A program made the translations under genes and the position numbers. The notes below the pieces were generated by a model. It was not told the DNA's origin. It saw only the letters and a program-made list of their open reading frames with translations, and ran no database searches. From the IMG/VR virus record IMGVR_UViG_3300022927_000008, positions 45,774 to 109,773 of that record: a stretch of 64,000 nt of DNA, one strand, 5' to 3'. How positions within the stretch are numbered: position 1 is the stretch's first letter; the number at the start of each line of letters is the position of its first letter. The stretch is from a virus. Of this stretch, positions 10,971 through 64,000 are shown in pieces.

Positions 10971-10987
10971 ATTTTAAAATTATTTTA

Positions 10988-15491: not shown

Positions 15492-15503
15492 TTTGTTTTT
15501 TTA

Positions 15504-15686: not shown

Positions 15687-15719
15687 AGCTAATATATTTT
15701 GATATAAATATTCGCGAAA

Positions 15720-18377: not shown

Positions 18378-18379
18378 TT

Positions 18380-25202: not shown

Positions 25203-25955
25203 TTAATAATCTGCTTTTCGTACGACAAAGTACATAGAGTCTATATTCTCATCTTCGGATCTAAAGATAAGGCGAAGAAGGCCATCATCCACAAAACTCA
25301 TTTGACATTCATCTGACGTTTTGTTAGCGTTAAATATTTCTCTAAGCATTTCACTACTAAAGGGAATCTTATTATCTTCTCTAACATTATCTTCAAATTT
25401 AGCTGCAACATGAAATTCTACTTTATTTGAGAAATCCATACGTTCACCAAATGTAAATTGAAGTACTGAGTTACCGATAATATCTTGTGTGGGGTTTACT
25501 GTAACAAGCTCGTTTCCTTGAATAGCTCCTGCTGCTCTAATAAACGTTTGGAAGTCTTCATTATCAAAATTAGCTCTAGCTTGCCATTGAACATCTTCAT
25601 TTACCTCACCTACTTTAGGTATCATAAGTGGATCAGCAAGTGAGTAGTTAATAGTAGATTTGGCGTCTTGGATATTAAGTTTAGTAAGTATTGCTTTGGT
25701 TTTTTCAGCATCAAGTACCAAATCACCTGATAGTACATTCAATAGCCTATTAAGTTGAGTTGTGTTAAAGATAGCTAATGTGCCCTCAGTTGTGATAGGA
25801 AATTCCCAAGCAATTACCCTACCAATCATATCCTTAGTAGGAGCCATAAAGTCGATAGTTAAAGTACCTCCTTCAATTTCCCATTTAACGGATTCTACTT
25901 TACCTCCAAGATAATACTTAGAGATAACTGATTGTAATCTATTTTTTGATATCAT
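25203..25955 (-). CDS. sliding clamp (gp45/PCNA-like)
   Basis: 250 aa, immediately after the DNA polymerase; GLLRLIF...YFVV C-terminus. Confidence 0.75.
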   Translation of the reverse strand: MISKNRLQSVISKYYLGGKVESVKWEIEGGTLTIDFMAPTKDMIGRVIAWEFPITTEGTLAIFNTTQLNRLLNVLSGDLVLDAEKTKAILTKLNIQDAKSTINYSLADPLMIPKVGEVNEDVQWQARANFDNEDFQTFIRAAGAIQGNELVTVNPTQDIIGNSVLQFTFGERMDFSNKVEFHVAAKFEDNVREDNKIPFSSEMLREIFNANKTSDECQMSFVDDGLLRLIFRSEDENIDSMYFVVRKADY

Positions 25956-26881
25956 TAGAAACTAAAAAATTTATTTATGTTTGGATTTAAATTTAATGTC
26001 CAGCCTAGGTCATTATAAAACCCTTCCAACTTAGATTGTAGTATAGTTTCAAATGATTTTTTCCTATCAGCATAGTCCTCAAGAAATATACGAAACTTAT
26101 CTGGCATGTCAAAGGTTAAGAAGCCTATTTGTTCAATTTTGTAGGGATTATCTTTTAAATAGACCCATTTGATTTTATCTCCCTGTACTATTCGGCTATG
26201 GTTTTTAATACCCCAAAAGTTAAGCAAATCATTATACTTTACTGCTGCCTTAACATTAACAGGGGCACCTTTTTTAAGTTCAGTCATTACCTCACCTGCT
26301 CTAGGTTTACGAACTACATACTCATTTAGTGTTTTTACAGAGGTAGGATTGCCAAGTTTAGCTATATCTAAATCTTTAGACATAACATGATTCCTAAAAT
26401 CTAAAATTAACTTATCAATATGTTTTTGATCTGCTCCTTTTAGAATTTGCTCTAAGATATCATTAAAGAAATCTCCAAATATAGGAGGAAAGTTAGCTTT
26501 TTTAAACTCAAGTCCTTTAACATCTAGTGATTCTTTAGCTATACCCTCTTGTTTAGTTATCCACTGAGCATATCTACGAGTTGCTCTAAAATAAGCAGAA
26601 CGGATAACGCACTCTGTTTTCATTTCAAGTCGATGTGTACCGACATTGAAGCAGTCCCTAGCCAACTCATCATAATGAGAAGTAATGATGTCCTGATACT
26701 TAAGTGCGATTTGTTCAAGTAGGTTGTCTTTTTCTTCATCAGTTTTACTTTCAAAATCTGGGTAGAGATGTAGTAAGAGGGGTTCAGCGTTAAAGTAATT
26801 TGAGTCTGTGTCTACATAAGCACAGAAATTTTTATCTCCTTCGTCACATATCCACCAAGGTGTTTCTTCTAAGTGTATCAT
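25955..26881 (-). CDS. family B DNA polymerase, C-terminal subunit (motif C, thumb)
   Basis: YVDTDS, RRYA, VKGLE. Confidence 0.92.
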   Translation of the reverse strand: MIHLEETPWWICDEGDKNFCAYVDTDSNYFNAEPLLLHLYPDFESKTDEEKDNLLEQIALKYQDIITSHYDELARDCFNVGTHRLEMKTECVIRSAYFRATRRYAQWITKQEGIAKESLDVKGLEFKKANFPPIFGDFFNDILEQILKGADQKHIDKLILDFRNHVMSKDLDIAKLGNPTSVKTLNEYVVRKPRAGEVMTELKKGAPVNVKAAVKYNDLLNFWGIKNHSRIVQGDKIKWVYLKDNPYKIEQIGFLTFDMPDKFRIFLEDYADRKKSFETILQSKLEGFYNDLGWTLNLNPNINKFFSF

Positions 26882-28563
26882 AGTTTTACTTCTCCTCTAA
26901 TTACTTTATTCATATGTCTATTAGCACACAAAGCACTTTCTTGAATAATACGCTGACCAGATAGAGTGATTGCCTCACTAAGGATTACGTTACCGTATCT
27001 AAAACTACCAAGAGCAGTTGCACCATACAAGCTATTTAACAAAATTTTCATTGTGTGTTGACGTTGATGCCAAAACGCACCCTTTTCTTTATCACCAGCT
27101 TTATATGCTTTTTTCATATAACCTTTATATTCCACTCGCTCATCAAACCATTTAGCAAGTATAGTTGACAAAACAGAAGGCTTATCAGTTCTAAACATTA
27201 CACCATTAGCTGAGATGGCTAAGTTATTATTTTCTATAGTTTCAATAATTTTTTTACAGGGAATATAAGTTTGTTTACGTTGTAGGTTTTCAACACACAA
27301 TTCTTTATTAGGGTCCATTGCTTTAAGATCATTTAACCCTAAACGATTATTTCGATCATCAAACAAATCCATTACTCTACCAACATATGTTTCTTTACCA
27401 ATGTTAAGAGACATAATAATTGAAGGATACAGTGAAGTTAGATCCTCATCAAACATGTACTTATACAAACCTGCAGCAGGACAAAATAGATAACCACCTG
27501 CATAACCCTTTTTATGAATTGGATTTTTATCTCTAGAAGGTGGGACAATATTTTGTCCTAACAAATAAGCTGAAATTGCTCCGTCTTGGGTTTTAGTGTT
27601 TGCATAAACCTCTCCATAATTGTGTTTTCCTTTATGTGATAGGTTTTTTACAAGGCCAATATATTCAAATTTTTCATCTAGTGCCTTAAGTATTTCTACA
27701 TCTCGAAAGTTGTATTGAATAAACTTTTGGATATCATCTTCGAATAAACGATCTAGATTACCATCATATTCAACTTTACCTAAATTAACATATTTTTCTC
27801 CAATAGCATCTAGTCTCATTGAGGGTTCATCTCGGAAACTAAACTTTTTATGTAGTTTCATATAGTCTAGTGATTCAACTCCTGCAATATTGAGCCATCC
27901 GTTGCGGTTCCAAGCACTTTCGTCTTTTACAACATCTATAGGAGATAAGGCATTAGCAAAATCTTCACCTAGCACTCTACTAATCCTAAAATAAAGATAA
28001 GGAATATCAAAGTAATCACTATTCCATCCTACAAGGATGTCTGGGTTTATTTCTCTAAATTTTTCTATAAACTTACTAAGTAGTTCTTCTTCACTAGCAC
28101 AAGGGATAATTTCTTTGTGTCCCTTAGTATGTTTAATTTGATTCTTTTTATCTAAAATAAGAATTACCCATTCATCAGGTGTTTTATCATACCAAGCAAT
28201 TGAAGTTACAGGTTTAGGAGCTTCTTTAATATACTCTTCTGTAAGTGCTCCACCCATTTCAATCTCAATATCAAAAAATACTTCACGGTGTCCCTTAGAC
28301 ACTTCATCATTAGTTCCATATTTTTCAATAAGGAACTTTTGGTAAGCAGGCATGTCATGGAAGTGGAGGCCAGGGGTATCTTTGTCCCATTTATAGGTTT
28401 TCTTTAACCATTCCCCCTTCAAACCCTGGTATTGAGCTTCATTTTCAGAGCACTCAACATAAGCAGGATTGCTCCAAGGAATTATATTATAATTATCTTC
28501 TTCCCATAGATGTATCTTATACCGGTTTTTACCAGCATATTCAGCATAACATTTTTTGTACAT
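26878..28563 (-). CDS. family B DNA polymerase, N-terminal subunit (3'-5' exonuclease, motifs A and B)
   Basis: FFDIE, GWNSDYFD, YNFRDV, DLTSLYPS, KILLNSLYG. Confidence 0.95.
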   Translation of the reverse strand: MYKKCYAEYAGKNRYKIHLWEEDNYNIIPWSNPAYVECSENEAQYQGLKGEWLKKTYKWDKDTPGLHFHDMPAYQKFLIEKYGTNDEVSKGHREVFFDIEIEMGGALTEEYIKEAPKPVTSIAWYDKTPDEWVILILDKKNQIKHTKGHKEIIPCASEEELLSKFIEKFREINPDILVGWNSDYFDIPYLYFRISRVLGEDFANALSPIDVVKDESAWNRNGWLNIAGVESLDYMKLHKKFSFRDEPSMRLDAIGEKYVNLGKVEYDGNLDRLFEDDIQKFIQYNFRDVEILKALDEKFEYIGLVKNLSHKGKHNYGEVYANTKTQDGAISAYLLGQNIVPPSRDKNPIHKKGYAGGYLFCPAAGLYKYMFDEDLTSLYPSIIMSLNIGKETYVGRVMDLFDDRNNRLGLNDLKAMDPNKELCVENLQRKQTYIPCKKIIETIENNNLAISANGVMFRTDKPSVLSTILAKWFDERVEYKGYMKKAYKAGDKEKGAFWHQRQHTMKILLNSLYGATALGSFRYGNVILSEAITLSGQRIIQESALCANRHMNKVIRGEVKL

Positions 28564-35249: not shown

Positions 35250-36725
35250 TTAACGTAAAATTATAACGTGTCCTCTTAATTCTTTTACTTCAGCTGTCCC
35301 TACTTTCCTTGCTTGGAACCACCACAAATACATTTCATTTTGTACATAATAATCACCCCCTCTAAAATTACCATTCCAAACTAAGTTATTTACATCATAA
35401 GATTCCCATACTATATTTCCCCATCTACTTATTACTTGAACCTTAACATCAGTCCAACATTCAGGATCTAGTACTATCTCCCACCCATCATTATACCCAT
35501 CATTATCTGGGGTGAAGGCGTTAGGAATGTAAACATTACATTCTTTATTCCTAATTTCACTACAAGGTAAACCTGTTTCACAATCTATTTCTACAAACTC
35601 ATATATAGTAACTGTATCACTTTGTATTATATAAATTGTATCTACAGAATAGATGTATTCTGTTTCAATTACAGTATCAGTTACAAAAATAAATTCTGTC
35701 TCAGTTACAGTAATTGTATCTGTTATAAATATAGTTTCAGTAACTGTGTCCGGGGGTAGTTCTATATAGAGTGTATCAATTTCAGTTACAATAATTGTAT
35801 CGGGAGGTAGCTCTATATAAAGTGTATCAATTTCAGTTACAGTAATAATAAGAGTATCTATTTCATATATAGTATCAGGGGGTAGTTCTATGTAAACAGT
35901 ATCACACTCAACTTCTTCAGGACAATCAAAAGCATTAAAATAAAAATCCCAATAACCGTCTGAGTTTTGGTATTCATTACATAGTTCTTCACCATTAGGA
36001 GTATCACAATAAATACAAAACCCACCTGGTTCAAACCATTGGTTGTTGTAATTACAAGCTATTGGGTTATTACATTCATCTAATATTAATGGTTCTTCGG
36101 GTTCCTCGCAAGGTCCTACGATTATCCAATTGTCTAAAAAGTTAGTATCTTCATACAACCCACTCCCATAACTGGTCCCATCACCATTTGCCCCTACTTC
36201 TGCCCAACCCCCATCTTCAGCATACATTGTAGGCCCATAGCTAATCTGCCATATTACTGCTTGAATGCTATAACCTTCATCATACCAATATTGTAAATTA
36301 TTGGCAAGTTGAGAAGTTGTATTGATATTTGTTGATTGATAAACATTATCCAAAGGAAAAGTTAAAGTATCCCCCGTATAGTAAGGGGGTTGTAATTCAG
36401 GACCATAGTTATTAGTCCAATTACCAAATATTTCAGTTGTAGTAGCTGAGTATAACCATCCAGGATGATTACTGTTATCAGGGATAGATATTCCACTAGG
36501 GAAATCCCAACCAATATTCATAGCATTACAGTTACTATCTATTGCTTGAAACCCAAATTGAATTTCAGATATACCATCAGGCCCACCTGTCCCCCCACAG
36601 TTATTTGTATTGTTAAAAGCTACAGTAATTGTAGCATCATTAACATTAAAATCAAGTATTTCAAGATCACATTGTCCTAATATACTAAATGGTAAAAAAA
36701 GTAAAGCTAATAATAATTTCTTCAT
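35250..36725 (-). CDS. secreted protein with T9SS type-B (gliding motility-associated) C-terminal domain
   Basis: Signal peptide; repeated DTxYIELPPDT stalk; YIPNAFTPDNDGYND...SRWG...WNG...ILR. Confidence 0.85.
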   Translation of the reverse strand: MKKLLLALLFLPFSILGQCDLEILDFNVNDATITVAFNNTNNCGGTGGPDGISEIQFGFQAIDSNCNAMNIGWDFPSGISIPDNSNHPGWLYSATTTEIFGNWTNNYGPELQPPYYTGDTLTFPLDNVYQSTNINTTSQLANNLQYWYDEGYSIQAVIWQISYGPTMYAEDGGWAEVGANGDGTSYGSGLYEDTNFLDNWIIVGPCEEPEEPLILDECNNPIACNYNNQWFEPGGFCIYCDTPNGEELCNEYQNSDGYWDFYFNAFDCPEEVECDTVYIELPPDTIYEIDTLIITVTEIDTLYIELPPDTIIVTEIDTLYIELPPDTVTETIFITDTITVTETEFIFVTDTVIETEYIYSVDTIYIIQSDTVTIYEFVEIDCETGLPCSEIRNKECNVYIPNAFTPDNDGYNDGWEIVLDPECWTDVKVQVISRWGNIVWESYDVNNLVWNGNFRGGDYYVQNEMYLWWFQARKVGTAEVKELRGHVIILR

Positions 36726-38722
36726 TAATGTTGTTGGTGATAGATTTTTTTACTAATCACAAAACCATTTGTCCATTCTTGAACTATAAAATAGATTCCT
36801 GTATCTAGATAATCATTATATTGTACTTCTTGTCCTTGCAAATTATATAGTTTTTGAGTAACAACTTCTTCTCCTGCCTCTTGTACTAATCGTCTAAAAC
36901 TATCTAATGGGGGAGACATTAAACCTGTTCCACATTCAGTATCAAAATTAGCAATAGCATCTAATATATCATCTACCCCTACAACCCCATCTTGGTTGAT
37001 ATCAAATTGGTTACAAGGTTCTACTTCAAGTCCATAATATTGTATAATTTGTAGTATATCACTTACCCATACAAATCCATTACCATCTACATCCCATGGA
37101 CAATCGTTAGGGGGACAAAAAGAGGGTATTACATAAAAGGGTAAAGGTTCACCATCAGCCCACCCTCCTTGGATTGAGTTTAATGTATCATTCCCACTTA
37201 TAATTGAGATAAGCCCATACTCATCAGGATTATCTACACAATAATAATGTAACCCATTACCAAAAATATCTTCTAACACTAAAACATAGTTACCTTCAGG
37301 TAAACAAAAACTATAAGTTTCAGATTCACAAGAATAATCAGCATTAGTATATGTCTGGCTTCCTACCCCACTAATAGCATCTCCTATAGGATTGTTTAAA
37401 CTATCAGCCTCGTATAAAACCCAATGGAATCCGTAGGGAAGGGCGTCAAATTGTATATTAATATCAATAAGAGAACCTTCATAATTGTCAAGTTGAACTG
37501 ACTGAGTGTTATTATCTGCGTAGACATCTCCTAAGGCATCTACATTAATTTCAATATCTACTAGACCATAACCTACTTCAAAATTAGGTATAGTTATAGT
37601 TTCACTTTCACCAAATCCTAAATTACCTGTCCAAATCATAAATAACTCTTCACCATTAATTGTATAATTAATAGTGGTTTCAGTTAAAGTATCACCATAA
37701 CTAGTTAATATAAATTCTATATCTTGTGTAGGGTCACAACCAAGATTTGGTATAGTAACACCACTTACACCAGCATCTACACCATCAATAGCACCACAAG
37801 CTAGTGTGTTATTTACTACCCCTGGGCGAGCTGTTTCTAGTCTGCTAAGCATTCTTAAAGCTTGACCCTGGGTAAAACTATCCATGCATTGGTCATTAGA
37901 ATAATCCATGAAATTCTCCACCAATGTTTCAGGACATGATAAAGGTCCACATCCCGCAGAACCTGTAGTTGGTGGGGTATCGCATACAGCATCACCTTGG
38001 CTGACGCAATTACCAGTAGGATTACACGTAGAAGTATTGTGGAATGTATGGAATAACCCACAATAATGTCCTAGTTCGTGTACTAGTGTTCTATTTAAAG
38101 CATAATTATTTTGATACCCAGTTATTCCAAAGTAATTTGTACCTACAAATACCCCATAATTTGAAGGGGCTAAATAAGCAAATCCTAAAGGACTAGTAAA
38201 AGGTGCAACAAAAATATTACAATAATTACTACGATCATACCCAATTAAATTAGAAACATTTACATTATTTAAGTAAAAATCAGAAATGTCACCGAAACCT
38301 AAATCATCCCAATTATAATATCTAATACCTTCAATTGGAGCACCACTAGTAGATAAATTTGCAATACAAAAATCTATTTCTGTATTTGCTGTGGGGTCGT
38401 CACTAAACTCACCTGCAAAGTTTTGGTTGGCATTATCAATAGCTTCTTGAACATATTCAATAGGTAAATGGTTATCCACTCCATAGGGCTCACCAAGGTG
38501 AATAATATGGACAATAACCGGTACAGTTATAGGAAGATCAGGCATAGATGAAGCCCTTTTAGCTTCTTCTGCTTCCTTAGCTATTTTTTCAAGTTTTAAA
38601 TAGCTTCGTTTAAATTTAGGATCTTGTAGCTGTTGCTCAAAAAGAGCATCTGTGCCACATCTTTCTTGCCCATAAAGGGGCAATGTCATAAGTAGTAAAA
38701 ATAGGAAAATCAGTTTTTTCAT
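36725..38722 (-). CDS. secreted M43 (pappalysin/ulilysin-like) zinc metalloprotease with dockerin-like Ca repeats and T9SS type-A-like tail
   Basis: Signal peptide, RCG cysteine switch, HELGHYCGLFH, NFMDY Met-turn, DVDGNG/DINQDG, LYNLQGQ...GIYF...KK. Confidence 0.9.
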   Translation of the reverse strand: MKKLIFLFLLLMTLPLYGQERCGTDALFEQQLQDPKFKRSYLKLEKIAKEAEEAKRASSMPDLPITVPVIVHIIHLGEPYGVDNHLPIEYVQEAIDNANQNFAGEFSDDPTANTEIDFCIANLSTSGAPIEGIRYYNWDDLGFGDISDFYLNNVNVSNLIGYDRSNYCNIFVAPFTSPLGFAYLAPSNYGVFVGTNYFGITGYQNNYALNRTLVHELGHYCGLFHTFHNTSTCNPTGNCVSQGDAVCDTPPTTGSAGCGPLSCPETLVENFMDYSNDQCMDSFTQGQALRMLSRLETARPGVVNNTLACGAIDGVDAGVSGVTIPNLGCDPTQDIEFILTSYGDTLTETTINYTINGEELFMIWTGNLGFGESETITIPNFEVGYGLVDIEINVDALGDVYADNNTQSVQLDNYEGSLIDINIQFDALPYGFHWVLYEADSLNNPIGDAISGVGSQTYTNADYSCESETYSFCLPEGNYVLVLEDIFGNGLHYYCVDNPDEYGLISIISGNDTLNSIQGGWADGEPLPFYVIPSFCPPNDCPWDVDGNGFVWVSDILQIIQYYGLEVEPCNQFDINQDGVVGVDDILDAIANFDTECGTGLMSPPLDSFRRLVQEAGEEVVTQKLYNLQGQEVQYNDYLDTGIYFIVQEWTNGFVISKKIYHQQH

Positions 38723-38756
38723 AGCGGTTTGGTTGTAACTTTCGGTTATAAATATT

Positions 38757-38784
38757 AAAAAAGGCACCCGAAGGTGCCCTTTTT
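38757..38784 (-). terminator. intrinsic terminator
   Basis: GGCACC-TTCG-GGTGCC plus T6 on the minus strand. Confidence 0.9.
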
Positions 38785-53042: not shown

Positions 53043-54206
53043 TCACTCCAATATACGAACAAGAGCATTAGCAACCAAATCTGGGGTTATAGATTTTGAG
53101 CATTCAAAATGGCGGGGGGTATCTTTATGGTGGGGACACCACTCCCAATCTCCTGCATCTAATTTATGAGTATTAAAACATCCACGGCATACATTAGAGG
53201 GGGCACTTATTCTTTCACAATTTTGGAATTCAGTATACTCATCACTAAATCCTGAGATAAGAATTGTAGGGGTATTTAAGGCCCAGCTAACCCAGGATAA
53301 ACCACTACCTGTTCCTACAAAAGCTTCAGCGTTAAAAATGTCTGTGAATCTATCTTGGAAAGAATAGTCACCTGTTTTATCTATTACATTTTGTAAGGTT
53401 CCTCCTAGTTTAGAATCATGCCAGCTATTTCCTAATTTTTCATAGGAAATCATAACTACTTTATATCCTGTTTCATTTAACCAATCAATTATAAGTTGCC
53501 ACCCCCCCTTATTATTCCAATAAGAAGCATGTTTGGTTCCATGGGGGGCTATAACAACATATTTTTCTTTTATATTGCGTTTTTTATTTTTAATAAAAAT
53601 AGAAGGTTTAATTTCTTGATATTGTAACCCCAATATGTCACTTGCAGTTTTTTGTAAGGGTTGGGTTTTTACTTCTTTTGGATTTTTATTTAAATTGATA
53701 TTTTCTTCTTCGTAAAACCATCCTACTCTATACATAGCATATAAATCATGCACTATAGTATTAGGTTCTACAAATTCAACATTAGGATATTCTTTTTTAA
53801 ACCAATCATTATGAAATGTAGAACACACAACTTTGCAATTATGTTGTTCTTGAAATTGTTTTATATAAGGAAACCATGCTAATGTATCTCCAATGGATTT
53901 AGAATCTAAATGAATATAAACTCTTTTATTAGTACAATCAAAAATATGTTCTTTTATTTTGTTTCCATTATTCCAAACTTCTACCCTCCACTTTATAAAA
54001 TATTGAGGGTTAGGGGAAGTCCACATGTTATTGCTAATAGTATCCTCCCATATAAGTTCATTAGTTTTATAATTAAAGAACTTAACTAAATATTTCTTAT
54101 CAAAAGAACCATTAATTTCAACTTTAGCTCCTTCAATGAAAGAAATATTTATTTTATTTTCATTAGTATTATAAGAAGCATTATAACTTAAATTATCGTA
54201 TATCAT
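53043..54206 (-). CDS. TibC/AAH-like (BAHT family) protein O-heptosyltransferase homolog
   Basis: YFIKWRVEV, SIGDTLAWFP, QPLQ, YWNNKGGW, GSGLSW, ISGFS and CxxC-x13-C-x11-C iron-finger. Confidence 0.9.
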   Translation of the reverse strand: MIYDNLSYNASYNTNENKINISFIEGAKVEINGSFDKKYLVKFFNYKTNELIWEDTISNNMWTSPNPQYFIKWRVEVWNNGNKIKEHIFDCTNKRVYIHLDSKSIGDTLAWFPYIKQFQEQHNCKVVCSTFHNDWFKKEYPNVEFVEPNTIVHDLYAMYRVGWFYEEENINLNKNPKEVKTQPLQKTASDILGLQYQEIKPSIFIKNKKRNIKEKYVVIAPHGTKHASYWNNKGGWQLIIDWLNETGYKVVMISYEKLGNSWHDSKLGGTLQNVIDKTGDYSFQDRFTDIFNAEAFVGTGSGLSWVSWALNTPTILISGFSDEYTEFQNCERISAPSNVCRGCFNTHKLDAGDWEWCPHHKDTPRHFECSKSITPDLVANALVRILE

Positions 54207-55144
54207 AATTTTTCTAAAATTAAATTTTTAGTTTGATTAACATCCCCATTTGTATATGATACTAAATTATTGTTATCATACTGGTTTAAGTAGGTGGGGA
54301 GTTTTCTCATCAGAATAGGGAGTTTGTAGGAAAGTGATTCTTTAACTACTAAGGGGTTTAACTCTAAAATACTACTAAAATAAAATAAATCAGCAGCTTG
54401 TAAAAACTTTTCTACATCATTTCTTTCCCCCCATACTTTACAGTTTTTAGGTTTATTTTTCATTAAGGGACCCCAATAATCTTCAAAATTACCTGCTTGG
54501 TTTCCTATAAAGTGGAATATTATATCTTTATCTGTAAGGTGTTTTGCAACTTCGAATATTTCACTTTGGTTTTTACCAGGGGTAAATAATCCTATATTAA
54601 TTATATGTTTATAACTAGGATCAAATCCTAATTCTTTTTGGTATTTTTCTTTATTAGGAATTAAATCCTCAATCGGATATTCCCAAATATCACAAGGAAT
54701 TTTTACTACCGATTCAAATCTATTTTTACTCCACTCAGATACTAAAATAAATTTGTCTGGTAGTGAAGATAATTGGTTAGGGTCAGTGTATGAAGAATGT
54801 GTAGTAGATAAAATATAATAAGAACGATTAGGTTTATTAAAAATTTTATCTAAAATAATAGTATCTATAAAATGCTCAGGAATTTCTTCAAAATGAACAA
54901 TATCAGGTTTTATATTTTCTATGTGTTGTAATAAAACCTGTTTATCTTCATAAAGGGTAATTAATTTATTTTCCCCTAGTAATTGTTTTATCTTATTTTT
55001 TTGAACAACGTATTCCCAACTTAAATCTTGATATTCTATTACATAAATGTTAAATTGAGATTTAAAATACTCTATTTTTTTTAAAAGATATTGTGGTAAC
55101 CCTCCTGTTGACAAGTGAGGAGTTACGTAAAGTAACTTTTGCAT
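54203..55144 (-). CDS. GT4-like glycosyltransferase
   Basis: PHLSTGGLPQ, GLFTPGKNQ, ELNPLVVKE; ATGA-coupled to the BAHT gene. Confidence 0.85.
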   Translation of the reverse strand: MQKLLYVTPHLSTGGLPQYLLKKIEYFKSQFNIYVIEYQDLSWEYVVQKNKIKQLLGENKLITLYEDKQVLLQHIENIKPDIVHFEEIPEHFIDTIILDKIFNKPNRSYYILSTTHSSYTDPNQLSSLPDKFILVSEWSKNRFESVVKIPCDIWEYPIEDLIPNKEKYQKELGFDPSYKHIINIGLFTPGKNQSEIFEVAKHLTDKDIIFHFIGNQAGNFEDYWGPLMKNKPKNCKVWGERNDVEKFLQAADLFYFSSILELNPLVVKESLSYKLPILMRKLPTYLNQYDNNNLVSYTNGDVNQTKNLILEKL

Positions 55145-55181: not shown

Positions 55182-56615
55182 TTAAAGTTTATTTAAAGTA
55201 AGTGTGTGAGAATGAAACATATACCTAGTGCTAGAGGCATTTGTGGTGCTCTTTGCTCCTATAATAAGGAGGTCCCCCTTAGATAGGGATTGGGGTTGGT
55301 AGTTAACACTTCCCGTTACAGGAAAAGAACTATCAGAAGAATTAAATTCTACACTAGCACTAGTAATTATACTCATATTAGGGTTTCCAGAAGAAGGTTG
55401 GCTTCTAATAACAAGGAAATCATGAGATTGACCTTGATATTCTGCAGCAGTAACATCACTGGTGGGTTGGGAAGAAACATAAGCTCTAACGGCAAGGTTT
55501 ACATTATAAGTTCCATCTTCGGGGACAACATATCCTGCTTTCATGTAACTTCCTGCACCTGTAGTAAGAGTAGTAGGGGAAGCTAATGAGTACATATCAA
55601 AAATACCAATACTATAACCATACTGCCTACTGCCCATATAATGGTAATATTGATCAGTTGTAGTACTTAACAAGGTTTGTCCTGAGTTCGCGAATGTTGT
55701 TTTTACATGTATAGCTGCTAAAGACGCAGATACACTACCCCAATCATCTATAGTGATATCGCTTCCTGTTATTTCACCTGTGGGTCCATGTAAAAATATA
55801 GTGCCAGTTCCAAATTTATTATTTATTTGAATTAGACCCCCTAGATTGGTAGTTCCAGGGTTGTCTGTTCTAATAATTACATAAGGATTGGTTCCATTAC
55901 TAAGTACAAAACTAGCGTTTTCAGTAGGAGTGGTTTGGGGGTTAGTATCTTTTATTTCAATAGAATGACTAGTAACTGTAGAGTAAAAATCAGAATAGGC
56001 ACCATGATTATGCGCCATGTCTACCATATCAACCTCGGTATTAATATTCCTTGATATAGCAAAAGTTAATTGACCATTTACTCCTTGTGTAGCACTAGGG
56101 ACATCATTTACTCTAGTTTTAATACGAGCAATAGAACCTGTAGTTGTGATATCATTAAAAGAAGCACTGTCAATTACAAAATTAATTATTCCTGCTTCAT
56201 CACCTACTTGTGCTCCTACAGATTCACGGCTGGAGCGGATAAGTAATTCTGTTCCTCTACTATTTTCTATTTTGGATTTTATATCAAATGCTTTAATAGG
56301 CTTTTCACTTGTACTAAACCCAATACCTATGCGTGGCTCATTATTACTACCAGTTGCAGATATTTTAAATATTGGTTCTCCTTTTGAAGTATTATTTTCT
56401 GGGGAGGGTACTCTAAATATTAATTCACCTGAGGAGCCGGTTTGGTCCGCACTGGTAATGATAGCTTCTATAGAGGCAACTGAGGATGTTGTTAAAACAT
56501 TCGAACTGGTTGCAGGGGAATATACAAAAAATATTCCTGGGATGGAAGATGTTGTGGGTAATGTGTACGACCCTGTGCTTCCTAGAGCTATTCCTATTGC
56601 AGAACCAAAAATCAT
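55182..56615 (-). CDS. putative virion/tail fibre protein
   Basis: Ser/Thr/Gly-rich beta protein with RIGIG; C1q-like end (YVVPEDGTY). Confidence 0.6.
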   Translation of the reverse strand: MIFGSAIGIALGSTGSYTLPTTSSIPGIFFVYSPATSSNVLTTSSVASIEAIITSADQTGSSGELIFRVPSPENNTSKGEPIFKISATGSNNEPRIGIGFSTSEKPIKAFDIKSKIENSRGTELLIRSSRESVGAQVGDEAGIINFVIDSASFNDITTTGSIARIKTRVNDVPSATQGVNGQLTFAISRNINTEVDMVDMAHNHGAYSDFYSTVTSHSIEIKDTNPQTTPTENASFVLSNGTNPYVIIRTDNPGTTNLGGLIQINNKFGTGTIFLHGPTGEITGSDITIDDWGSVSASLAAIHVKTTFANSGQTLLSTTTDQYYHYMGSRQYGYSIGIFDMYSLASPTTLTTGAGSYMKAGYVVPEDGTYNVNLAVRAYVSSQPTSDVTAAEYQGQSHDFLVIRSQPSSGNPNMSIITSASVEFNSSDSSFPVTGSVNYQPQSLSKGDLLIIGAKSTTNASSTRYMFHSHTLTLNKL

Positions 56616-56616
56616 A

Positions 56617-57147
56617 TTATATAAATAAATATGTTCCCTTTACCATTTTTGCTCCTCCTCTAACAGCTAATCTACATGAAAAAGTTTTAGTAGAATCATT
56701 ATAAGTAATATTATTATAATCTACAGTGTCATTTCCCAACATTGAATAGGGTTGAGGAGTAGTATAAGTAATATTATTAGGACTAGCGACATTTAAAGGC
56801 GTATATTTAAAACTTGAATGGGTTGAATTGTCAGGTCTAATTATAGCAATTTGTTCAAACCTAATAGGTTGGGTCCCCCCAACAAGATTAGTAAGTGTAT
56901 TAGGTAGTTGGCGGGGCATTACTATCCCTTTTACATGAAGGCCTATAGGGACAAAGTTTAAAGAATCAGGAATAACTTCTAAATACACAATGGGAGTAGT
57001 ACCTGCTGATCCTCCGGCAACGGTATAGTTTATAAAGGCTTTTTGGGTAGTATAGGGTTGCTCAAATGAAGAGGATACATATAACCCCTCCCCACTAACA
57101 TCATTATATGCTATATTTAATTGGTTAAGTGTTTTTAAATTTCCCAT
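56617..57147 (-). CDS. putative virion structural protein
   Basis: Beta-rich; ends KGTYLFI, similar to its neighbour (RGNYLMY). Confidence 0.55.
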   Translation of the reverse strand: MGNLKTLNQLNIAYNDVSGEGLYVSSSFEQPYTTQKAFINYTVAGGSAGTTPIVYLEVIPDSLNFVPIGLHVKGIVMPRQLPNTLTNLVGGTQPIRFEQIAIIRPDNSTHSSFKYTPLNVASPNNITYTTPQPYSMLGNDTVDYNNITYNDSTKTFSCRLAVRGGAKMVKGTYLFI

Positions 57148-57157
57148 AATTTTTAAT

Positions 57158-57775
57158 TTAATACATTAAATAGTTTCCTCTAACTATAAAAGGATCAAGT
57201 TGTTTACTCATCCACCATTTTAATTGAAATGTTTGGTTAAGGTTATTATAAACTATATTAAATGTTTGGGTGGGGTTTCCTGCATTATCATAATAACCAG
57301 CAGGATCTACTGCATTAAATAGATTCCAATCCCCTTCCTCGTTAAAATGGTCTTCTTTAAAACTAAAAGGGTAATTTATACCCTCAGAGGATACAGCTCC
57401 TTCTGTGTATTCATCACCATTACTAGCGTGGGTAACAGCAGATGATATCATTGTAAAAGTAAAAGGACCTGTGTTGAAATTAACACCTATAGGTTCAACA
57501 GAAATAAACATTTCTAATATATTAGCCCCAATTCTATCAGGATCTCCAAAAGCTAAAGCTTGGTCTTCAGCAAAAGTGTTAGCAAATCTATATCTTGAAA
57601 TTTCAAATATAACAGATCCAGTATAATCATTACCAAGGGGGTAATCTTGGTCATTATCAGGGATATAAACTGTATTATAAAAAGACCCATACAAAGGATT
57701 ATATACATAATTTACATTATCATTTATACTAGAACTAGCAATAGCAATTTCATGATATAAAGGGGAATTTATCAT
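57158..57775 (-). CDS. putative virion structural protein
   Basis: Beta-rich ORF in the structural block. Confidence 0.55.
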   Translation of the reverse strand: MINSPLYHEIAIASSSINDNVNYVYNPLYGSFYNTVYIPDNDQDYPLGNDYTGSVIFEISRYRFANTFAEDQALAFGDPDRIGANILEMFISVEPIGVNFNTGPFTFTMISSAVTHASNGDEYTEGAVSSEGINYPFSFKEDHFNEEGDWNLFNAVDPAGYYDNAGNPTQTFNIVYNNLNQTFQLKWWMSKQLDPFIVRGNYLMY

Positions 57776-58476
57776 ATATATTCAATTATAGTTCTTATGT
57801 TTCGTGTACTCCCAGGTGGTGGAACAGTCATAATCCCCGCTATATATATAAAATCATTACTAGATGTGTCTACTTCATTATCTACCATTCCTGATGAAGA
57901 TGGATCTCTTCCTACATAAAAATAAGGGGGGCCTTGAAACATGTTATTATAAAAAAAATATGTAGTAAAATCTGTATTGATGGGGGAGGTTATTAAATTT
58001 AGTTGGAAATTTGTAGGGTTAGTTAACGTAAGATCTGTGGGGGTTGTTACTGAATTGTCTCCTTCTAGTGTAGAAGGGAGTCTTCCTATTATTTCAAAAA
58101 TTGCATTATCATAGAATCCTCCTTGATTATTAGAATTGCTATCGTTATAAAAATACATATACCCTTTAAAAGCTGATCTATAGGGCTTGGTAGAGGTGGT
58201 TCCTTCTTTAATTATGGGGAATTTTGCAAAAATGGATAGGGTTGTTGAATTCGAAGTTATTATTCTATTGCAACAATATTTTTGAGAGGAAAATGGAAAA
58301 ACTCCATCATTTCTGTCTGTAAATGCTGAGGTGTTATCATTGGTGAATTGTTCATGTATTAAGTTAGAGTAATTTAAGGCCTGTATATTACTACCACCAC
58401 CCTCACTTTTAGCAAAAATATACTTACTTTTTTTGGGGTGTAAATTTAGTTTATCAAATACAGGGGAACTACTCAT
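57772..58476 (-). CDS. putative virion structural protein
   Basis: ATGA-coupled start at MSSSP. Confidence 0.55.
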   Translation of the reverse strand: MSSSPVFDKLNLHPKKSKYIFAKSEGGGSNIQALNYSNLIHEQFTNDNTSAFTDRNDGVFPFSSQKYCCNRIITSNSTTLSIFAKFPIIKEGTTSTKPYRSAFKGYMYFYNDSNSNNQGGFYDNAIFEIIGRLPSTLEGDNSVTTPTDLTLTNPTNFQLNLITSPINTDFTTYFFYNNMFQGPPYFYVGRDPSSSGMVDNEVDTSSNDFIYIAGIMTVPPPGSTRNIRTIIEYI

Positions 58477-58958
58477 AACAAAATATATTTTAAACAATAA
58501 TAAACATTATCAATATCATATTGATAAATTTCAAAATTTAAACCCCCATTACTATCAAAAGAACCCGTAACCCTTTTTATGTCATAAATAACCTTATCTT
58601 CGGGATATCTAACATCTTCTACAGTACTGCTTACTAAACTATCTCCTGAACTTGAGTCCCATATTAAAGTGGTACGCATAGCTTGGTGTTGGGTATAAGA
58701 TCCTTGAGTTACGGCATCACATTCAATTCGTGCATATCCAAATTCTCCCGACACATTTTGGGGATAATTAGTAGGATCTAAAGTAATATTAATAGTGTAA
58801 ACTCCGGGACCATCATTAGGACCCGCACATATATATCCTTCATTATTTCTAAGGTCAAATTCTTTTTTTTGGTTATCCCATACCACATAAGAAGAAGGAG
58901 GGGGGCTGCATGCATCAAGTGGTACTATAACATTATGTCTTGTTGTTCCTTGAGCCAT
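58473..58958 (-). CDS. putative virion structural protein
   Basis: Preceded by the ATATTTAT motif. Confidence 0.55.
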   Translation of the reverse strand: MAQGTTRHNVIVPLDACSPPPSSYVVWDNQKKEFDLRNNEGYICAGPNDGPGVYTINITLDPTNYPQNVSGEFGYARIECDAVTQGSYTQHQAMRTTLIWDSSSGDSLVSSTVEDVRYPEDKVIYDIKRVTGSFDSNGGLNFEIYQYDIDNVYYCLKYILL

Positions 58959-58986: not shown

Positions 58987-60099
58987 TTATTCAAATCTAT
59001 CAAGTTCAGCATTATAATTTTGTGTAACTTGATTTGCACTAAGGGCAAAATCATACATTCTTACTATAGCAATTTTTCCTTTAAAATATTGAGATGTATA
59101 TGTTCCTATTCTTACAAGAGGGTTATAGAGCAAAGTTGCTGTAGTGTCAATATTTAATGATGAAAAAGTGTTTGTTAAGGATCCATTTTTGTACACTTTA
59201 ACAGTATTATTAGCACCATCAATAGTTACTACTAAGTGCATCCAAGGTCCAGGGTTCCCTGTAGTTAGGGGTGGGAAAAAATTATTGATGGTATTACTAT
59301 AATTTGTAGTTGAACCTTCGATATTAACTCTAAGATCTCTACCACTAGTACCTTTTTTAGTTAGTCTTACATGTCTAGAGAATGAAGTCATTAGTATTTC
59401 TTCTTCAACATTATTATCACGGTTACGATCTGATGCTAACCATATTTCTATACTAGATGTATTAAGATTTTGAAATCTATATATGGCCGCAGTTGCTTCA
59501 CTTGAGTCGGGGTCAGGGGAAAGATATTTAACAACTCCACCAGTGGCTTGGATAAAATCATCTGTTCCATCCAACCCTAAATATTTAGCACTTCCTGTAG
59601 TATCATATAAAGGACCATTAGCAAATATTGCAGCTAAACTTCCTGTAAGTTCTATTTCAGTACCTCCTGCTATAAGGGGGGTACCTGTACCACCAAGGGG
59701 TAATACGGTATAAGTAGTTCCAGGGTCATAATTATCCAAAGATTGCCATAAGGGTCTATTGGCTTGGGAGGGATTCCCACTAACATTAGGATTAACATCC
59801 CCCCAAAGTTGAGATCCTGAATCTTCAGCATCTAAGTGGAGCATTAGGCCTGTAGTAACATAATCAGGGGTGTTTGAAGAGGGTATAAAAGAATGGGTTC
59901 CTAATAATTCTACATAAGTTTTACCTACTAAACTTTCAGTAACATATGAGGAATTTAAAGCCACATAATTTTGACTTAATAAATTAGTACTACCAATTTG
60001 ACCCTTTAATAAAGTATTTGTAATAAAACCTTGTTGTTCAATTGTAATAAATCCTGTTACAGACTCTGATTTGTATGTTGCATTTAAGTTTAAAGTCAT
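58987..60099 (-). CDS. LamG/concanavalin A-like lectin domain virion protein
   Basis: GLMLHLDA, LDGTDD, WMHLVVT, YKNG, GKIAIVRMYDFALS...QNYNA. Confidence 0.85.
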   Translation of the reverse strand: MTLNLNATYKSESVTGFITIEQQGFITNTLLKGQIGSTNLLSQNYVALNSSYVTESLVGKTYVELLGTHSFIPSSNTPDYVTTGLMLHLDAEDSGSQLWGDVNPNVSGNPSQANRPLWQSLDNYDPGTTYTVLPLGGTGTPLIAGGTEIELTGSLAAIFANGPLYDTTGSAKYLGLDGTDDFIQATGGVVKYLSPDPDSSEATAAIYRFQNLNTSSIEIWLASDRNRDNNVEEEILMTSFSRHVRLTKKGTSGRDLRVNIEGSTTNYSNTINNFFPPLTTGNPGPWMHLVVTIDGANNTVKVYKNGSLTNTFSSLNIDTTATLLYNPLVRIGTYTSQYFKGKIAIVRMYDFALSANQVTQNYNAELDRFE

Positions 60100-61085
60100 G
60101 TTATTCCTGCAACTAAGCCATGAGTAGGAGCAAAGTGTTGATAAACTTGGTTTACTTCGCTGTCTGAAAGGAAACGGTTATATACTAACATTAGTGATGA
60201 TTCAAAACTAGAGGCATCATCATGAGTAGTAACCAGACCCCATGCATTGGTAGAACCAGCGGTTGCAAATTCATAAGTTTTGTCGAAGGTTGCTTGGGTT
60301 TTAATATTAGCACTATATTCAGGATCATCACTCCAATTCCAAGTTACTTGGTTTTTCCCTATAACTTTTATATCAATGTCTTCACCCGCTCCAGACTTTG
60401 CAGTTATTCTTATGACCAACATATGCCATTCTGAAGTGTCGATAAGAAAAGAATCAGTAAAATAATTGTAAACTCTAGGGATAGTACCAGTCATACCTAC
60501 TGGAACATCGACATGTAAATGGTCTGAGTTAGGGTTAGGCCCTCTGCTTATTCTGTATCTTTGATTAGGGCTGCTGGAGGCATTACGGTATATATACTCA
60601 TCGGGGTTTATATTAACATTACGTATCCACATTATATGGGTTACAGGATCTGTGGTTGCGAAATCTAAAGTATTGTTAACATTTATGTTATCCATAAATT
60701 TATTATTATCAAATTTAAAGTACCTTACACTATACTTACCATTTTCGGTAATACCAAAGTCGTTAATAGTAGGATTTTCTGAAGGATTGTTTATATTTTC
60801 AAAAAATAGAGTATAATCATGTTCTTCGGGAGATTGATCTTTATATCGCTTATAGTATCCAATAAAGGTAGTACTTGAAGCATGACCATCATACGTGCTT
60901 AAATTACTACCTGTTGCTTGAGAAACTATAAAAAGGTATAATCCATTTGTAATTAAAGGAACAGGGTCATAAGGGATATCATGTCTTGCTTTTAAGAAAA
61001 CATTTCGACCATGTTGACCTCTAAGTTGGACATTCCTAATATCCCCTTGAAGAAGAATTTTATCTTTACCTAATAAATTACCCAT
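60096..61085 (-). CDS. divergent LamG-like lectin domain protein
   Basis: TNGL, WHML, VYNRFLSDSEVNQVY. Confidence 0.7.
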   Translation of the reverse strand: MGNLLGKDKILLQGDIRNVQLRGQHGRNVFLKARHDIPYDPVPLITNGLYLFIVSQATGSNLSTYDGHASSTTFIGYYKRYKDQSPEEHDYTLFFENINNPSENPTINDFGITENGKYSVRYFKFDNNKFMDNINVNNTLDFATTDPVTHIMWIRNVNINPDEYIYRNASSSPNQRYRISRGPNPNSDHLHVDVPVGMTGTIPRVYNYFTDSFLIDTSEWHMLVIRITAKSGAGEDIDIKVIGKNQVTWNWSDDPEYSANIKTQATFDKTYEFATAGSTNAWGLVTTHDDASSFESSLMLVYNRFLSDSEVNQVYQHFAPTHGLVAGIT

Positions 61086-61091: not shown

Positions 61092-61511
61092 TTAGACTCT
61101 TGATGCAGAGGGGAATAAAGCTTTATTTAGGGTAAAGGTACCTCTAGATACTACTACACTATTTTCTCCATTACTATCTGCTAAAACTAATTCATGTTCG
61201 TATGTAGCGTTAATTTCGTCTGCATCAGAATCCAAGTTATCTGTTAACCATCCAAAATCATCTTTAGTTATTGAAACTAAAAATTTATTATCAGGTTGGT
61301 ATGCAATTCCTCCTTCACCACTAAAATCACTAGCTCCAGTTGTTTTTACTATTCTTTTAGTAGTATTTGAATTTGCAATTCCGGTAGGTACAGGGCCCGC
61401 TGACCAATAAGCTTTATAAGTGGATATGTCCCCCACATCAGTAGTAATAGTAAATTGAATAGTGAAAGTATCATATGCATACTTTGTAAAATTTTGATTT
61501 AAAGAAGCCAT
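61092..61511 (-). CDS. BppU-like / baseplate adaptor-type beta-sandwich protein
   Basis: DTFTIQFTI...YEHELVL...SRGTFTL. Confidence 0.55.
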   Translation of the reverse strand: MASLNQNFTKYAYDTFTIQFTITTDVGDISTYKAYWSAGPVPTGIANSNTTKRIVKTTGASDFSGEGGIAYQPDNKFLVSITKDDFGWLTDNLDSDADEINATYEHELVLADSNGENSVVVSRGTFTLNKALFPSASRV

Positions 61512-61539: not shown

Positions 61540-64000
61540 TTAAGTTATTGTTACCGATGGAGAAATTACAATTGCGGGATCATCATATTTTCTTACTTGG
61601 AATAAACATTTAAAATCTACATCAAAAGATAAATTATTTGTAAGTTTTACAGTAATATCGTCATCAGCAGGGTTATCTGTTAATTCTACACATATTTCAT
61701 TAATTTTTATTGGGAGGAATCCAACATTAGAGTCTCTTCTAATCCCATTAAAATCTGTTATATCTAAATAATAGGTAACATCATTAGTTCCACTAATATT
61801 AGTAAAGGCATCACACTCTAGTTGTATAGTTAATGCAAGATAACTTGCTCCTGTAGCATTAAATACTATAATTCCTTCTATATGTATGGAATCTTGAGTA
61901 TCAGTGGGAACTATACTAGATATTACTCTACTACCGCCTGAAAATAAAGTAGTTTCAGTAGACCAAACTTCTGATATAGAAGTACCACTAGTACCTGAGG
62001 TACCTGAAGAACCGGAAGTACCGCTTGAGCCTGAAGTACCTGATGAGCCACTAGTACCTGAGGAACCTGATGTACCACTAGAGCCTGAGGTACCTGAAGA
62101 ACCACTAGTACCTGATGAGCCTGAAGTACCTGAGGAACCTGATGTACCGCTTGAACCTGAGGTACCTGAAGAACCACTAGTACCTGAGGAACCTGATGTA
62201 CCACTAGAGCCTGAGGTACCTGAAGAGCCGCTAGTACCTGATGAGCCTGATGTACCTGAGGAACCTGATGTGCCACTAGAGCCTGAAGTACCTGAAGAAC
62301 CACTAGTACCTGAGGAACCTGATGTACCTGAGGAACCTGATGTACCTGAGGAACCTGATGTACCGCTTGAACCTGAGGTACCTGAAGAACCACTAGTACC
62401 TGAGGAACCTGATGTACCTGATGAACCACTGGTACCTGATGAGCCTGAAGTACCACTTGAACCTGAGGTACCTGAGGAACCTGAGGTACCTGAAGAACCA
62501 CTAGTACCTGAGGAACCTGATGTACCTGAGGAACCTGATGTACCGCTTGAACCTGAGGTACCACTAGTACCTGATGAGCCTGAAGTACCACTAGAGCCTG
62601 AGGTACCTGAAGAACCACTAGTACCTGAGGAGCCTGATGTACCACTTGAACCTGAAGTACCTGATGAGCCTGATGTACCTGATGAACCACTGGTACCTGA
62701 TGAACCTGAGGTACCACTTGATCCTGAGGTACCACTGGTACCTGAGGAACCTGATGTACCTGAAGAACCACTAGTACCTGATGAGCCTGATGTACCTGAT
62801 GAGCCTGATGTGCCACTAGTACCTGATGAGCCTGATGTACCTGAGGAACCTGATGTACCTGATGAGCCTGAGGTACCGCTTGAACCTGAAGTACCTGAAG
62901 AACCACTAGTACCTGATGAGCCTGATGTACCTGAGGAACCTGATGTACCGCTTGAACCTGAGGTACCTGATGAACCTGAAGTACCTGATGAACCTGAAGT
63001 ACCTGAGGAACCTGATGTACCACTGGAGCCTGATGAACCTGAAGTACCTGAGGAACCTGATGTACCACTAGAGCCTGATGAGCCTGATGTACCTGATGAA
63101 CCTGATGTACCACTAGAGCCTGAGGAACCTGATGTACCACTGGAGCCTGATGAACCTGAAGTACCTGAGGAACCTGATGTACCACTAGAGCCTGATGAAC
63201 CTGAAGTACCTGAGGAACCTGATGTACCACTGGAGCCTGATGAACCTGATGTACCTGAGGAACCTGATGTACCTGAGGAACCTGATGTACCACTGGAACC
63301 TGATGAACCTGATGTACCTGAGGAACCTGATGTACCTGAGGAACCTGATGTACCACTGGAACCTGATGAACCTGATGTACCTGAGGAACCTGATGTACCA
63401 CTGGAGCCTGATGAACCTGATGTACCTGAGGAACCTGATGTACCTGAGGAACCTGATGTACCACTGGAACCTGATGAACCTGATGTACCTGAGGAACCTG
63501 ATGTACCTGATGAACCTGATGTACCACTAGAGCCTGATGAACCTGATGTACCTGAGGAACCTGAAGTACCTGAGGAACCTGATGTACCGCTTGAACCTGA
63601 GGTACCTGAAGAGCCGCTAGTACCTGAAGAACCACTAGTACCTGAGGAACCTGATGTACCACTAGAGCCTGAGGTACCTGAAGAGCCGCTAGTACCTGAT
63701 GAGCCTGATGTACCTGAGGAACCTGATGTACCACTGGAACCTGATGAACCTGATGTACCACTAGAGCCTGATGAACCTGAAGTACCTGAGGAACCTGATG
63801 TACCACTGGAGCCTGATGAACCTGATGTACCTGATGAACCTGATGTACCTGAGGAACCTGATGTACCACTGGAACCTGATGAACCACTTGTACCTGAAGT
63901 ACCTGATGATCCTGAAGTACCTGATGTACCTGATGAACCACTTGTACCTGAAGTACCTGATGATCCTGAAGTACCTGATGTACCTGATGAACCACTTGTA
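61540..64000 (-). CDS. giant Gly-(Ser/Thr)-Ser repeat fibre protein, 5'-truncated by the window (true frame; replaces track ORF 61923..63995)
   Basis: Frame reads GTSGSSGTSG... through the repeat, then a ~146-aa unique domain ISEVWSTET...PSVTIT ending in TAA at 61540-61542. Confidence 0.9.
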   Translation of the reverse strand, partial: TSGSSGTSGTSGSSGTSGTSGSSGTSGTSGSSGTSGTSGSSGSSGTSGSSGTSGSSGTSGSSGSSGTSGSSGTSGSSGSSGTSGSSGSSGTSGSSGTSGSSGTSGSSGTSGSSGTSGSSGTSGSSGTSGSSGTSGSSGTSGSSGTSGSSGTSGSSGSSGTSGSSGTSGSSGTSGSSGSSGTSGSSGTSGSSGTSGSSGSSGTSGSSGTSGSSGSSGTSGSSGTSGSSGTSGSSGSSGTSGSSGTSGSSGTSGSSGSSGTSGSSGTSGSSGSSGTSGSSGTSGSSGSSGTSGSSGSSGTSGSSGTSGSSGSSGTSGSSGTSGSSGSSGTSGSSGTSGSSGTSGSSGTSGSSGTSGSSGTSGSSGTSGSSGTSGSSGTSGSSGTSGSSGTSGSSGTSGTSGSSGTSGSSGTSGSSGTSGSSGTSGTSGSSGTSGSSGTSGSSGTSGSSGTSGSSGTSGSSGTSGSSGTSGSSGTSGSSGTSGTSGSSGTSGSSGTSGSSGTSGSSGTSGSSGTSGSSGTSGSSGTSGSSGTSGSSGTSGSSGTSGSSGTSGSSGTSGSSGTSGSSGTSGSSGTSGSSGTSGSSGTSGSSGTSGSSGTSGSSGTSGSSGTSGSSGTSGSSGTSGSSGTSGSSGTSGSSGTSGSSGTSGSSGTSGSSGTSGSSGTSGSSGTSGTSGTSISEVWSTETTLFSGGSRVISSIVPTDTQDSIHIEGIIVFNATGASYLALTIQLECDAFTNISGTNDVTYYLDITDFNGIRRDSNVGFLPIKINEICVELTDNPADDDITVKLTNNLSFDVDFKCLFQVRKYDDPAIVISPSVTIT
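61981..64000 (-). repeat. 9-bp-period tandem repeat encoding GTS/GSS triplets (about 224 units in the window)
   Basis: Units such as ACCTGATGT/ACCTGAGGA/ACCACTAGT with synonymous third-position variation. Confidence 0.97.

Follow-up and report, generated by a model that had tools for sequence, protein, structure and literature searches.

Which of the overlapping frames at the end of a large viral contig is a gene, and how could a chain of glycine, serine, and threonine hold its shape? The stretch in question, hereafter the window, is the terminal 64 kb of a single 109,773-bp viral contig (IMG/VR record IMGVR_UViG_3300022927_000008, positions 45,774 to 109,773), and its end is base 109,773 of the record. 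A Gly-(Ser/Thr)-Ser array runs up to that end. We find that the G-(S/T)-S frame is the real gene and that two other open reading frames (ORFs) drawn over the repeat, VHQ and PEVPEEP, are shadow frames. With a probability of roughly 0.6, we read the element as the 3′ portion of the gene encoding a very long collagen-family (PF01391) phage fiber, in which a G-(S/T)-S rod precedes a small β-rich tip and the triple helix is stabilized by phage O-glycosylation. That figure applies jointly to the fiber assignment and to the glycosylated triple-helix model.

Reading frame and extent of the repeat

The locus contains the following features, with positions counted from the first base of the window.

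61540..63999, minus strand: fiber ORF of 819 amino acids, open at its 5′ end at the contig end and starting with two residues of a cut triplet
61978..63993, minus strand: Gly-(Ser/Thr)-Ser array of 224 uninterrupted triplets (672 amino acids), over which codons and residues were counted
61543..61977, minus strand: C-terminal domain of 145 amino acids, nonrepetitive, in frame with the repeat, predicted to be all-β
61540..61542, minus strand: stop codon of the fiber ORF; the start of the next gene lies 28 nt downstream
63994..64000, minus strand: triplet interrupted by the end of the contig, where the assembly lacks the N-terminal portion of the gene
61923..63995, minus strand: spurious 690-amino acid "VHQVPQ" ORF, a shadow frame that ends within the true C-terminal domain
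61904..64000, plus strand: antisense "PEVPEEP" ORF, likewise spurious and a shadow of the repeat

Three of the six frames are open across the repeat, and the other three hold stops. In the G-(S/T)-S frame, Gly is present in 224/224 triplets (GGT 186, GGC 35, GGA 3) and the Y position is Ser in 224/224 (TCN 173, AGY 51), while X is divided between Ser (115) and Thr (109), encoded by TCN and ACN codons. The 672 repeat residues include 0 Pro and 0 charged residues; neither Pro, Ala, nor any other single-step codon neighbor occurs in the array. Adding up the residue entropy over a triplet gives 1.0 bit for this frame, as opposed to 3.5 bits for the VHQ frame, none of whose triplet positions is constant, and 2.6 bits for PEVPEEP on the plus strand. 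All sizeable genes of the window are on the minus strand, and PEVPEEP is the sole plus-strand ORF of such size. A switch between TCN and AGY costs at least two substitutions, and Ser is kept in this frame only, which argues for selection at the protein level. The original prediction, made from the nucleotide sequence, is borne out on these points: the 690-residue VHQ frame is wrong, the frame ending at 61540 encodes a proline-free Gly-(Ser/Thr)-Ser repeat followed by a unique C-terminal domain, and the synonymous variation reflects protein-level selection.

The gene is truncated, as had also been proposed, with the repeat running to the last base of the contig. Exact internal repeats of up to 134 nt occur in the array, and the final 127 nt of the contig form a repeat offset by 54 nt. 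The assembly therefore broke inside the array, such that the 224 triplets are a lower bound with a locally uncertain copy number. The record is estimated by CheckV to be 74% complete, and its start and end lack a terminal overlap.

An independent metagenome contig, L263, bears on whether the repeat is real. It carries a 5′-open ORF with 318 uninterrupted G-[ST]-S triplets, in which Gly (318/318) and Ser at Y (318/318) are again invariant. All six Ser codons are used in this repeat, and its longest exact DNA repeat is 33 nt. The C-terminal domain is 31–33% identical to that of the window fiber, and the gene that follows is 49% identical to the product of window positions 61092–61511. Taken together, the array, the homologous domain, and the shared synteny exclude an assembly artifact and recent slippage, and they indicate purifying selection on the protein. 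A repeat length produced by the assembly had been named as one outcome that would overturn the original prediction; the independent ortholog rules out an artifact, with the 224-triplet length standing only as a lower bound. Length variability of the fiber gene within the population is plausible. The public gene call on the L263 contig, P0003, is a 94–96-amino acid fragment that begins at an internal Met.

Collagen-family relatives and the C-terminal tip

The repeat matches the Pfam Collagen family (PF01391) with 312.9 bits against a gathering cutoff of 27.2, a score that partly reflects low-complexity composition. Collagen-like tail-fiber PHROGs (5073, 6320, 1806, and others) match it as well, with E-values from 1e-87 to 1e-57. 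Stabilizing Pro/hydroxyproline or KGE/KGD charge pairs serve as a criterion for collagen (PMC11923368), and the array contains neither. From 8,000 candidates, a word-seeded search gave 1,531 proteins of the collagen family (E ≤ 1e-3). Among the 120 listed, nearly all are Pro-poor and Ser/Thr-rich, about ten have at least 94% Ser+Thr at X and Y, and uninterrupted runs reach at most 119 triplets. Roughly one in four of the same 120 end in the trimer-specific Peptidase_S74 chaperone domain (PF13884), which is also present in the viral fiber L003. Relatives accept many residues at X and Y; the Gly register is never lost. A DNA pattern search of IMG/VR located at least 120 stretches with long in-frame G-[ST]-S arrays.

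The G-(S/T)-S composition is unusual relative to characterized collagens, yet it has precedent. The novelty implied by the original prediction is contradicted both by the IMG/VR arrays and by Bucl3 of Burkholderia, which has GTS/GSS regions (PMC4565658). Like the window fiber, Bucl3 has a proline-free collagen-like region, composed mostly of GTS and GSS, and its repeat number varies among strains from 38 to 63. It differs in being bacterial and far shorter, in carrying a signal sequence and a Talin-1-like domain, and in having unrelated noncollagen parts; a linked TibC-type enzyme, of the kind described below, is not reported in that study (PMC4565658). Collagen-like tail fibers of phages and prophages (PHROGs 5073, 6320, and 1806; EPclA of an enterohemorrhagic Escherichia coli prophage, PMC3368898) share the arrangement of a Gly-X-Y rod between noncollagen domains. 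Characterized examples contain proline and about 22% charged residues, according to the figures quoted in PMC11923368, whereas the window fiber has none. It also exceeds them several-fold in length and has a protein glycosyltransferase linked to it.

BclA, from the exosporium of Bacillus anthracis (also as cited in PMC11923368), is a Thr-rich Gly-X-Y filament with a C-terminal globular trimerizing domain, an O-glycosylated collagen-like region, and a length set by repeat number. It differs from the window fiber in its proline-rich GPT triplets, its location on the spore surface, and its use of other glycosyltransferases, and no sequence relation between the two was found outside the repeat.

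The tip domain has few relatives. Homologs were limited to L263, P0003, and a third locus, L264, at 31–38% identity. No match was obtained by tblastn against phages, among longer proteins, in the IMG/VR search, in 26 ribonucleotide reductase (RNR)-related records, or in 2.3 Mb of fetched loci, and the protein atlas returned only unnamed clusters at 0.90. Of the three hits from an exhaustive representative search, P0003 is the only true relative; P0002 and P0004 were rejected as FN3/Ig-like repeat proteins matched via compositional bias. AlphaFold2 modeled the domain as all-β from a four-sequence alignment, with a mean predicted local distance difference test (pLDDT) score of 57.6 compared to 35 for a single-sequence run. 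The seven best structural matches of the model are C-terminal domains of phage tail fibers, tailspikes, or T4 gp9 (Z 5.9–8.7), with generic Ig and lectin folds ranking below them. These predicted similarities fit a fiber tip and are best treated as a lead, not proof; the domain is likely a trimerizing or receptor-binding tip. At L264 (positions 1–299), the last 75 residues of the tip domain are copied and are preceded by three stops and unrelated sequence. This copy may be a remnant or a recombinant tip cassette.

A TibC-like glycosyltransferase linked to the arrays

Two adjoining genes bear on a possible glycosylation of the fiber, with the TibC-like enzyme as the candidate modifier.

53043..54206, minus strand: TibC/Aah-family protein O-glycosyltransferase of 387 amino acids, 7.3 kb downstream of the fiber gene
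54203..55144, minus strand: GT1-family (GT-B) glycosyltransferase (PF00534, E 3.7e-12), sharing 4 nt with the start of the TibC-like gene

The TibC-like ORF aligns over its full length to the TibC structures 4RB4/4RAP (E 1.4e-50) and scores 306.5 bits against TIGR04414, for which the equivalog cutoff is 200, covering profile positions 9–373 of 374. In the alignment, the catalytic Asp110 and the iron-finger residues C339, C342, C358, and C370 are kept (roles from PMC4358343). Among the TibC sugar-binding residues, T226, R286, and W305 are retained, while K230 aligns with Ser, with a Lys three residues earlier. The bacterial autotransporter heptosyltransferase (BAHT) systems TibC–TibA and Aah–AIDA-I offer the closest functional parallel, in that this enzyme family hyperglycosylates Ser of repetitive substrates in the cytoplasm (4RAP/4RB4; PMC4358343). 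Their substrate is a β-helix autotransporter, whereas in the window phage it would presumably be the collagen-like repeat, and no autotransporter was found in the phage record. K230 and P300 also differ in the window enzyme, and the record yielded no gene of a heptose pathway. Given the changes at K230 and P300 and the lack of a GmhA-type gene, heptose is doubtful as the sugar. A second parallel comes from mycobacteriophages, whose glycosyltransferases O-glycosylate their own virion proteins (Freeman et al. 2023, PMC10527164, as cited in PMC12619734). There, the targets are the C-terminal tails of capsid and tail-tube subunits, the enzymes belong to other families, and no collagen-like fiber is involved.

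We assessed the association of enzyme and array in 48 viral records picked solely for long G-[ST]-S arrays. A TibC-like gene (E ≤ 4e-63) was present in 16/48 of these, in 12/18 of those of at least 50 kb, and in both of the two that are at least 90% complete. In 12 of the 16 positive records, no more than 10 kb separates the TibC-like gene from a Ser/Thr-rich Gly-X-Y ORF, with two gaps being only 2 and 51 nt. By comparison, the base rate among GenBank phages is 4 in 50,697 records: Microcystis phage Mel-JY01 (PP395634.1) plus three records from uncultured megaphages, one of which duplicates another. Arrays occur in two of these three distinct TibC-positive phages (Mel-JY01 and LR756501). RNR-chosen records had been considered as a clean negative control and were rejected for being too close to the window phage, and the GenBank phages supplied the base rate instead.

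Individual loci display the same pairing. In L003, 66 nt separate a TibC domain from the fiber that comes after it, which has 99 triplets that are 98% Ser/Thr. In record G063, a 2,732-amino acid Ser/Thr/Asn-rich fiber gene is followed by an 885-amino acid glycosyltransferase, a GT1, and a TibC-like gene whose product is 59% identical to that of the window; the window GT1 is 45% identical to the N-terminal domain of the 885-residue enzyme. The sheath, tube, and flanking genes of G063 lack counterparts in the window contig; the two share the glycosyltransferase cassette and the RNR gene, not the entire genome. In another TibC clade, all five whole records carry collagen-family ORFs, including frames of 1,910–1,913 amino acids with at least 279 uninterrupted G-T/S-S triplets. 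Across phages, there is a strong link between the TibC-like enzymes and G-[ST]-S arrays. We found no publication tying TibC/BAHT enzymes to phages or to collagen-like proteins, nor any on Mel-JY01.

Several observations concern the length and annotation of the related genes. The G063 fiber is a complete ORF of 2,732 residues (L243, 7756–15954). In record G007, an open frame of at least 3,132 amino acids with 893 triplets begins 2 nt past a TibC-like gene (L252, 10539–19934). As triple helices, these two fibers would measure 0.7 micrometers or more. Mel-JY01, the closest cultured relative, carries a plus-strand Ser/Thr-rich Gly-X-Y gene of at least 1,016 amino acids at the start of its record (L265, 1–3052), annotated there as two minus-strand "hypothetical proteins" and a 177-amino acid fragment, an antisense shadow on the wrong strand. 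A 754-amino acid N-terminal part is unannotated at the end of the record (L274, 4739–7000). The frame is continuous over the junction of the linear record, for a total of about 1,771 amino acids. The TibC domain of this phage is the C-terminal part of a 1,226-amino acid coding sequence named "methyltransferase FkbM". In four RNR-related records (G057, G062, G069, and G073), the TibC-like gene lies within 2–5 kb of a contig end, on the side where the fiber gene is expected, which suggests that assemblies routinely break at G-[ST]-S arrays.

Further genes lie between the fiber and the glycosyltransferases or elsewhere in the window.

61092..61511, minus strand: gene for a 139-amino acid protein, directly downstream of the fiber gene and conserved there in L263
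58987..61085, minus strand: two genes for proteins of 329 and 370 amino acids, the latter with a Laminin_G_3/concanavalin-like domain

The 139-residue product has no match in Pfam, PHROG, or NCBIfam and no close relative in IMG/VR. The 370-residue product matches PF13385 (E 1.6e-12), and the genes at 58987..61085 match phrog_8510 "virion structural protein" (E 5.4e-17); on these profile matches, both products are likely virion-associated. Between the LamG genes and the GT1/TibC pair lie five ORFs of 477, 176, 205, 241, and 161 amino acids (55182–56615 and 56617–58958) with no Pfam or PHROG match, the 477-residue product also having none in NCBIfam. A larger set of glycan genes occupies window positions 8135–19009. 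It includes a GH16, three GT2, RgpF (rhamnan synthesis), and two phrog_2170 glycosyltransferases, along with a hexapeptide acyltransferase, a rhamnosyl/macrocin-type sugar O-methyltransferase, and a DegT-family aminotransferase apparently split over two ORFs. This set could extend O-glycans on virion proteins, or it could modify host or DNA targets.

The remaining genes are typical of a large tailed phage, with RNR, a DnaB-type helicase, and GroEL in the window and a baseplate wedge gene at the opposite end of the contig from the fiber gene. A family-B DNA polymerase (25955–28563) is apparently split into ORFs of 561 and 308 amino acids; the first of these, the one searched, has its nearest match in Mel-JY01 at 35% identity. 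A DNA-level search against GenBank phages returned a sole match of 255 bp, inside the GT1 gene. Positions 35250–38767 encode a 491-amino acid protein with a CHU_C type IX secretion sorting domain and a 680-amino acid M43 metallopeptidase with a weak dockerin match. The type IX secretion tail of the 491-residue protein hints at a Bacteroidota host, yet the nearest polymerase relative is a cyanophage.

How the rod may be held together

A bare repeat with neither proline nor salt bridges would be expected to form a flexible coil, and Gly/Ser-rich sequences are indeed standard flexible linkers. In a peptide model that does contain proline, Ac-(Gly-Pro-Thr)10, the chain is likewise a coil unless its Thr residues are galactosylated (PMC11923368). 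Since the window repeat lacks both stabilizers, we propose that sugars loaded by a phage enzyme take their place. Three chains, joined by the C-terminal domain, would zip into a triple helix from the C- to the N-terminus. The TibC/Aah-family enzyme and the GT1, perhaps with the larger glycan set, would add sugars to Ser/Thr hydroxyls in the cytoplasm, and the glycans would stiffen or stabilize the rod. The product would be a sugar-coated fiber whose tip domain binds the host. If triple-helical, the rod of at least 224 triplets would span at least about 190 nm. The analysis establishes the reading frame and its composition, the match to the collagen family, the ortholog, what the enzyme is, and its genomic linkage; that the chains trimerize and carry sugars, which sugar this would be, and where on the virion the fiber sits are parts that we infer. 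A stricter form, in which the chain could not fold unaided, the TibC-family enzyme loads nearly every triplet, and the glycans themselves drive a triple helix of 0.2 to >0.7 micrometers, is less likely than not. The suggestion in the original prediction that folding may need glycosylation finds support of one kind, genomic association: the TibC-like and GT1 genes lie ~7 kb downstream, and the TibC family is strongly linked to such arrays.

Several points weigh against the glycosylated fiber. A glycan, a trimer, or a virion location has been observed for no member of this fiber class. In the TibC-like ORF, K230 is replaced by Ser and the stereoselectivity residue P300 by Gly, and the record has no SIS_2/GmhA match. 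The tip-domain model is of low confidence (pLDDT 57.6). The pairing of enzyme and array also has exceptions: in LR756504 a TibC-like gene occurs without any array that fits the strict pattern, and G014, at 84% completeness, has an array but no TibC-like gene. Eight genes separate the window fiber gene from the GT1/TibC pair, a looser arrangement than in L003, L250, and L252. Finally, the sampled records are fragments and phylogenetically nonindependent, and the RNR-chosen control set, in which 5/26 records are TibC-positive, is related to the window phage.

The same facts admit other readings. A mucin-like tether, a glycosylated but nonhelical bottle-brush with Gly spaced as the acceptor motif of the glycosyltransferase, would suit an array free of imino acids and charge pairs and bearing a hydroxyl on two-thirds of its residues; linkage to a hyperglycosylating enzyme family fits this tether equally well. 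We consider it unlikely, given that Gly invariant over 224 and 318 triplets in diverged orthologs is a signature of tight three-chain packing, and that relatives possess trimer-specific C-terminal chaperone domains and never lose the Gly register. It is about as unlikely, in our estimate, that the helix forms without sugars, stabilized by Ser/Thr hydroxyls and ordered water, with the TibC-like enzyme acting on a different target such as some other virion protein, a protein of the host surface, or a glycolipid. The GTS/GSS regions of Bucl3, described without a dedicated glycosyltransferase (PMC4565658), are consistent with such a helix, as are the eight intervening genes of the window and the array of G014. 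Tight, recurrent adjacency of fiber and TibC-like genes is, however, hard to explain if the two are unrelated. The flexibility of Gly/Ser-rich linkers also argues against an unassisted helix. Even (Gly-Pro-Thr)10 is a coil when unglycosylated (PMC11923368).

The two remaining alternatives concern the fold and the frame. A polyglycine-II bundle or antifreeze-like fold, which the original prediction raised by analogy to the snow-flea antifreeze protein, shares with the repeat only the three-residue Gly periodicity. Gly makes up exactly one-third (33%) of the array, Gly-Gly-X is absent, and there is no turn or break in 672 residues that would allow antiparallel packing. The phage structural and glycosylation context likewise disfavors such a fold, and no sequence or fold match to such proteins turned up, so we give this idea very little credence. 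The last alternative, to which we give practically none, is that the repeat is noncoding or an assembly artifact, or that VHQ or PEVPEEP is the real gene. It draws on the three open frames, the contig end within the repeat, and the exact repeats of up to 134 nt. Only the G-[ST]-S frame is residue-invariant with synonymous variation, though, and it leads into a conserved domain with synteny kept in L263, where no exact repeat exceeds 33 nt.

Taken one by one, phage collagen-like fibers, GTS/GSS regions, the TibC family, and the glycosylation of phage virions are all known, and the window fiber is a truncated, compositionally extreme example. Collagen stability is now explained by hydroxyproline, proline, or Lys-Glu/Asp salt bridges, the last of these having been proposed as a general collagen folding code, viruses included (PMC11923368). 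The window fiber and its many relatives have none of these stabilizers, yet their Gly register runs without a fault through hundreds of triplets. Gene callers and GenBank records often place the wrong frame or strand over such repeats (the window, P0003, and Mel-JY01), and assemblies break inside them; the class is therefore under-counted. The TibC-like enzyme and the fiber offer a defined enzyme–substrate pair for asking whether O-glycans replace the known stabilizers. If the glycosylated-fiber model is correct, the glycosylation of phage virions, to date demonstrated only for mycobacteriophages, would reach large aquatic phages. On the stricter form of the model, sugars would be a third way of making collagen stable, and the modification of these fibers would be a widespread type of virion glycosylation that has yet to be described.

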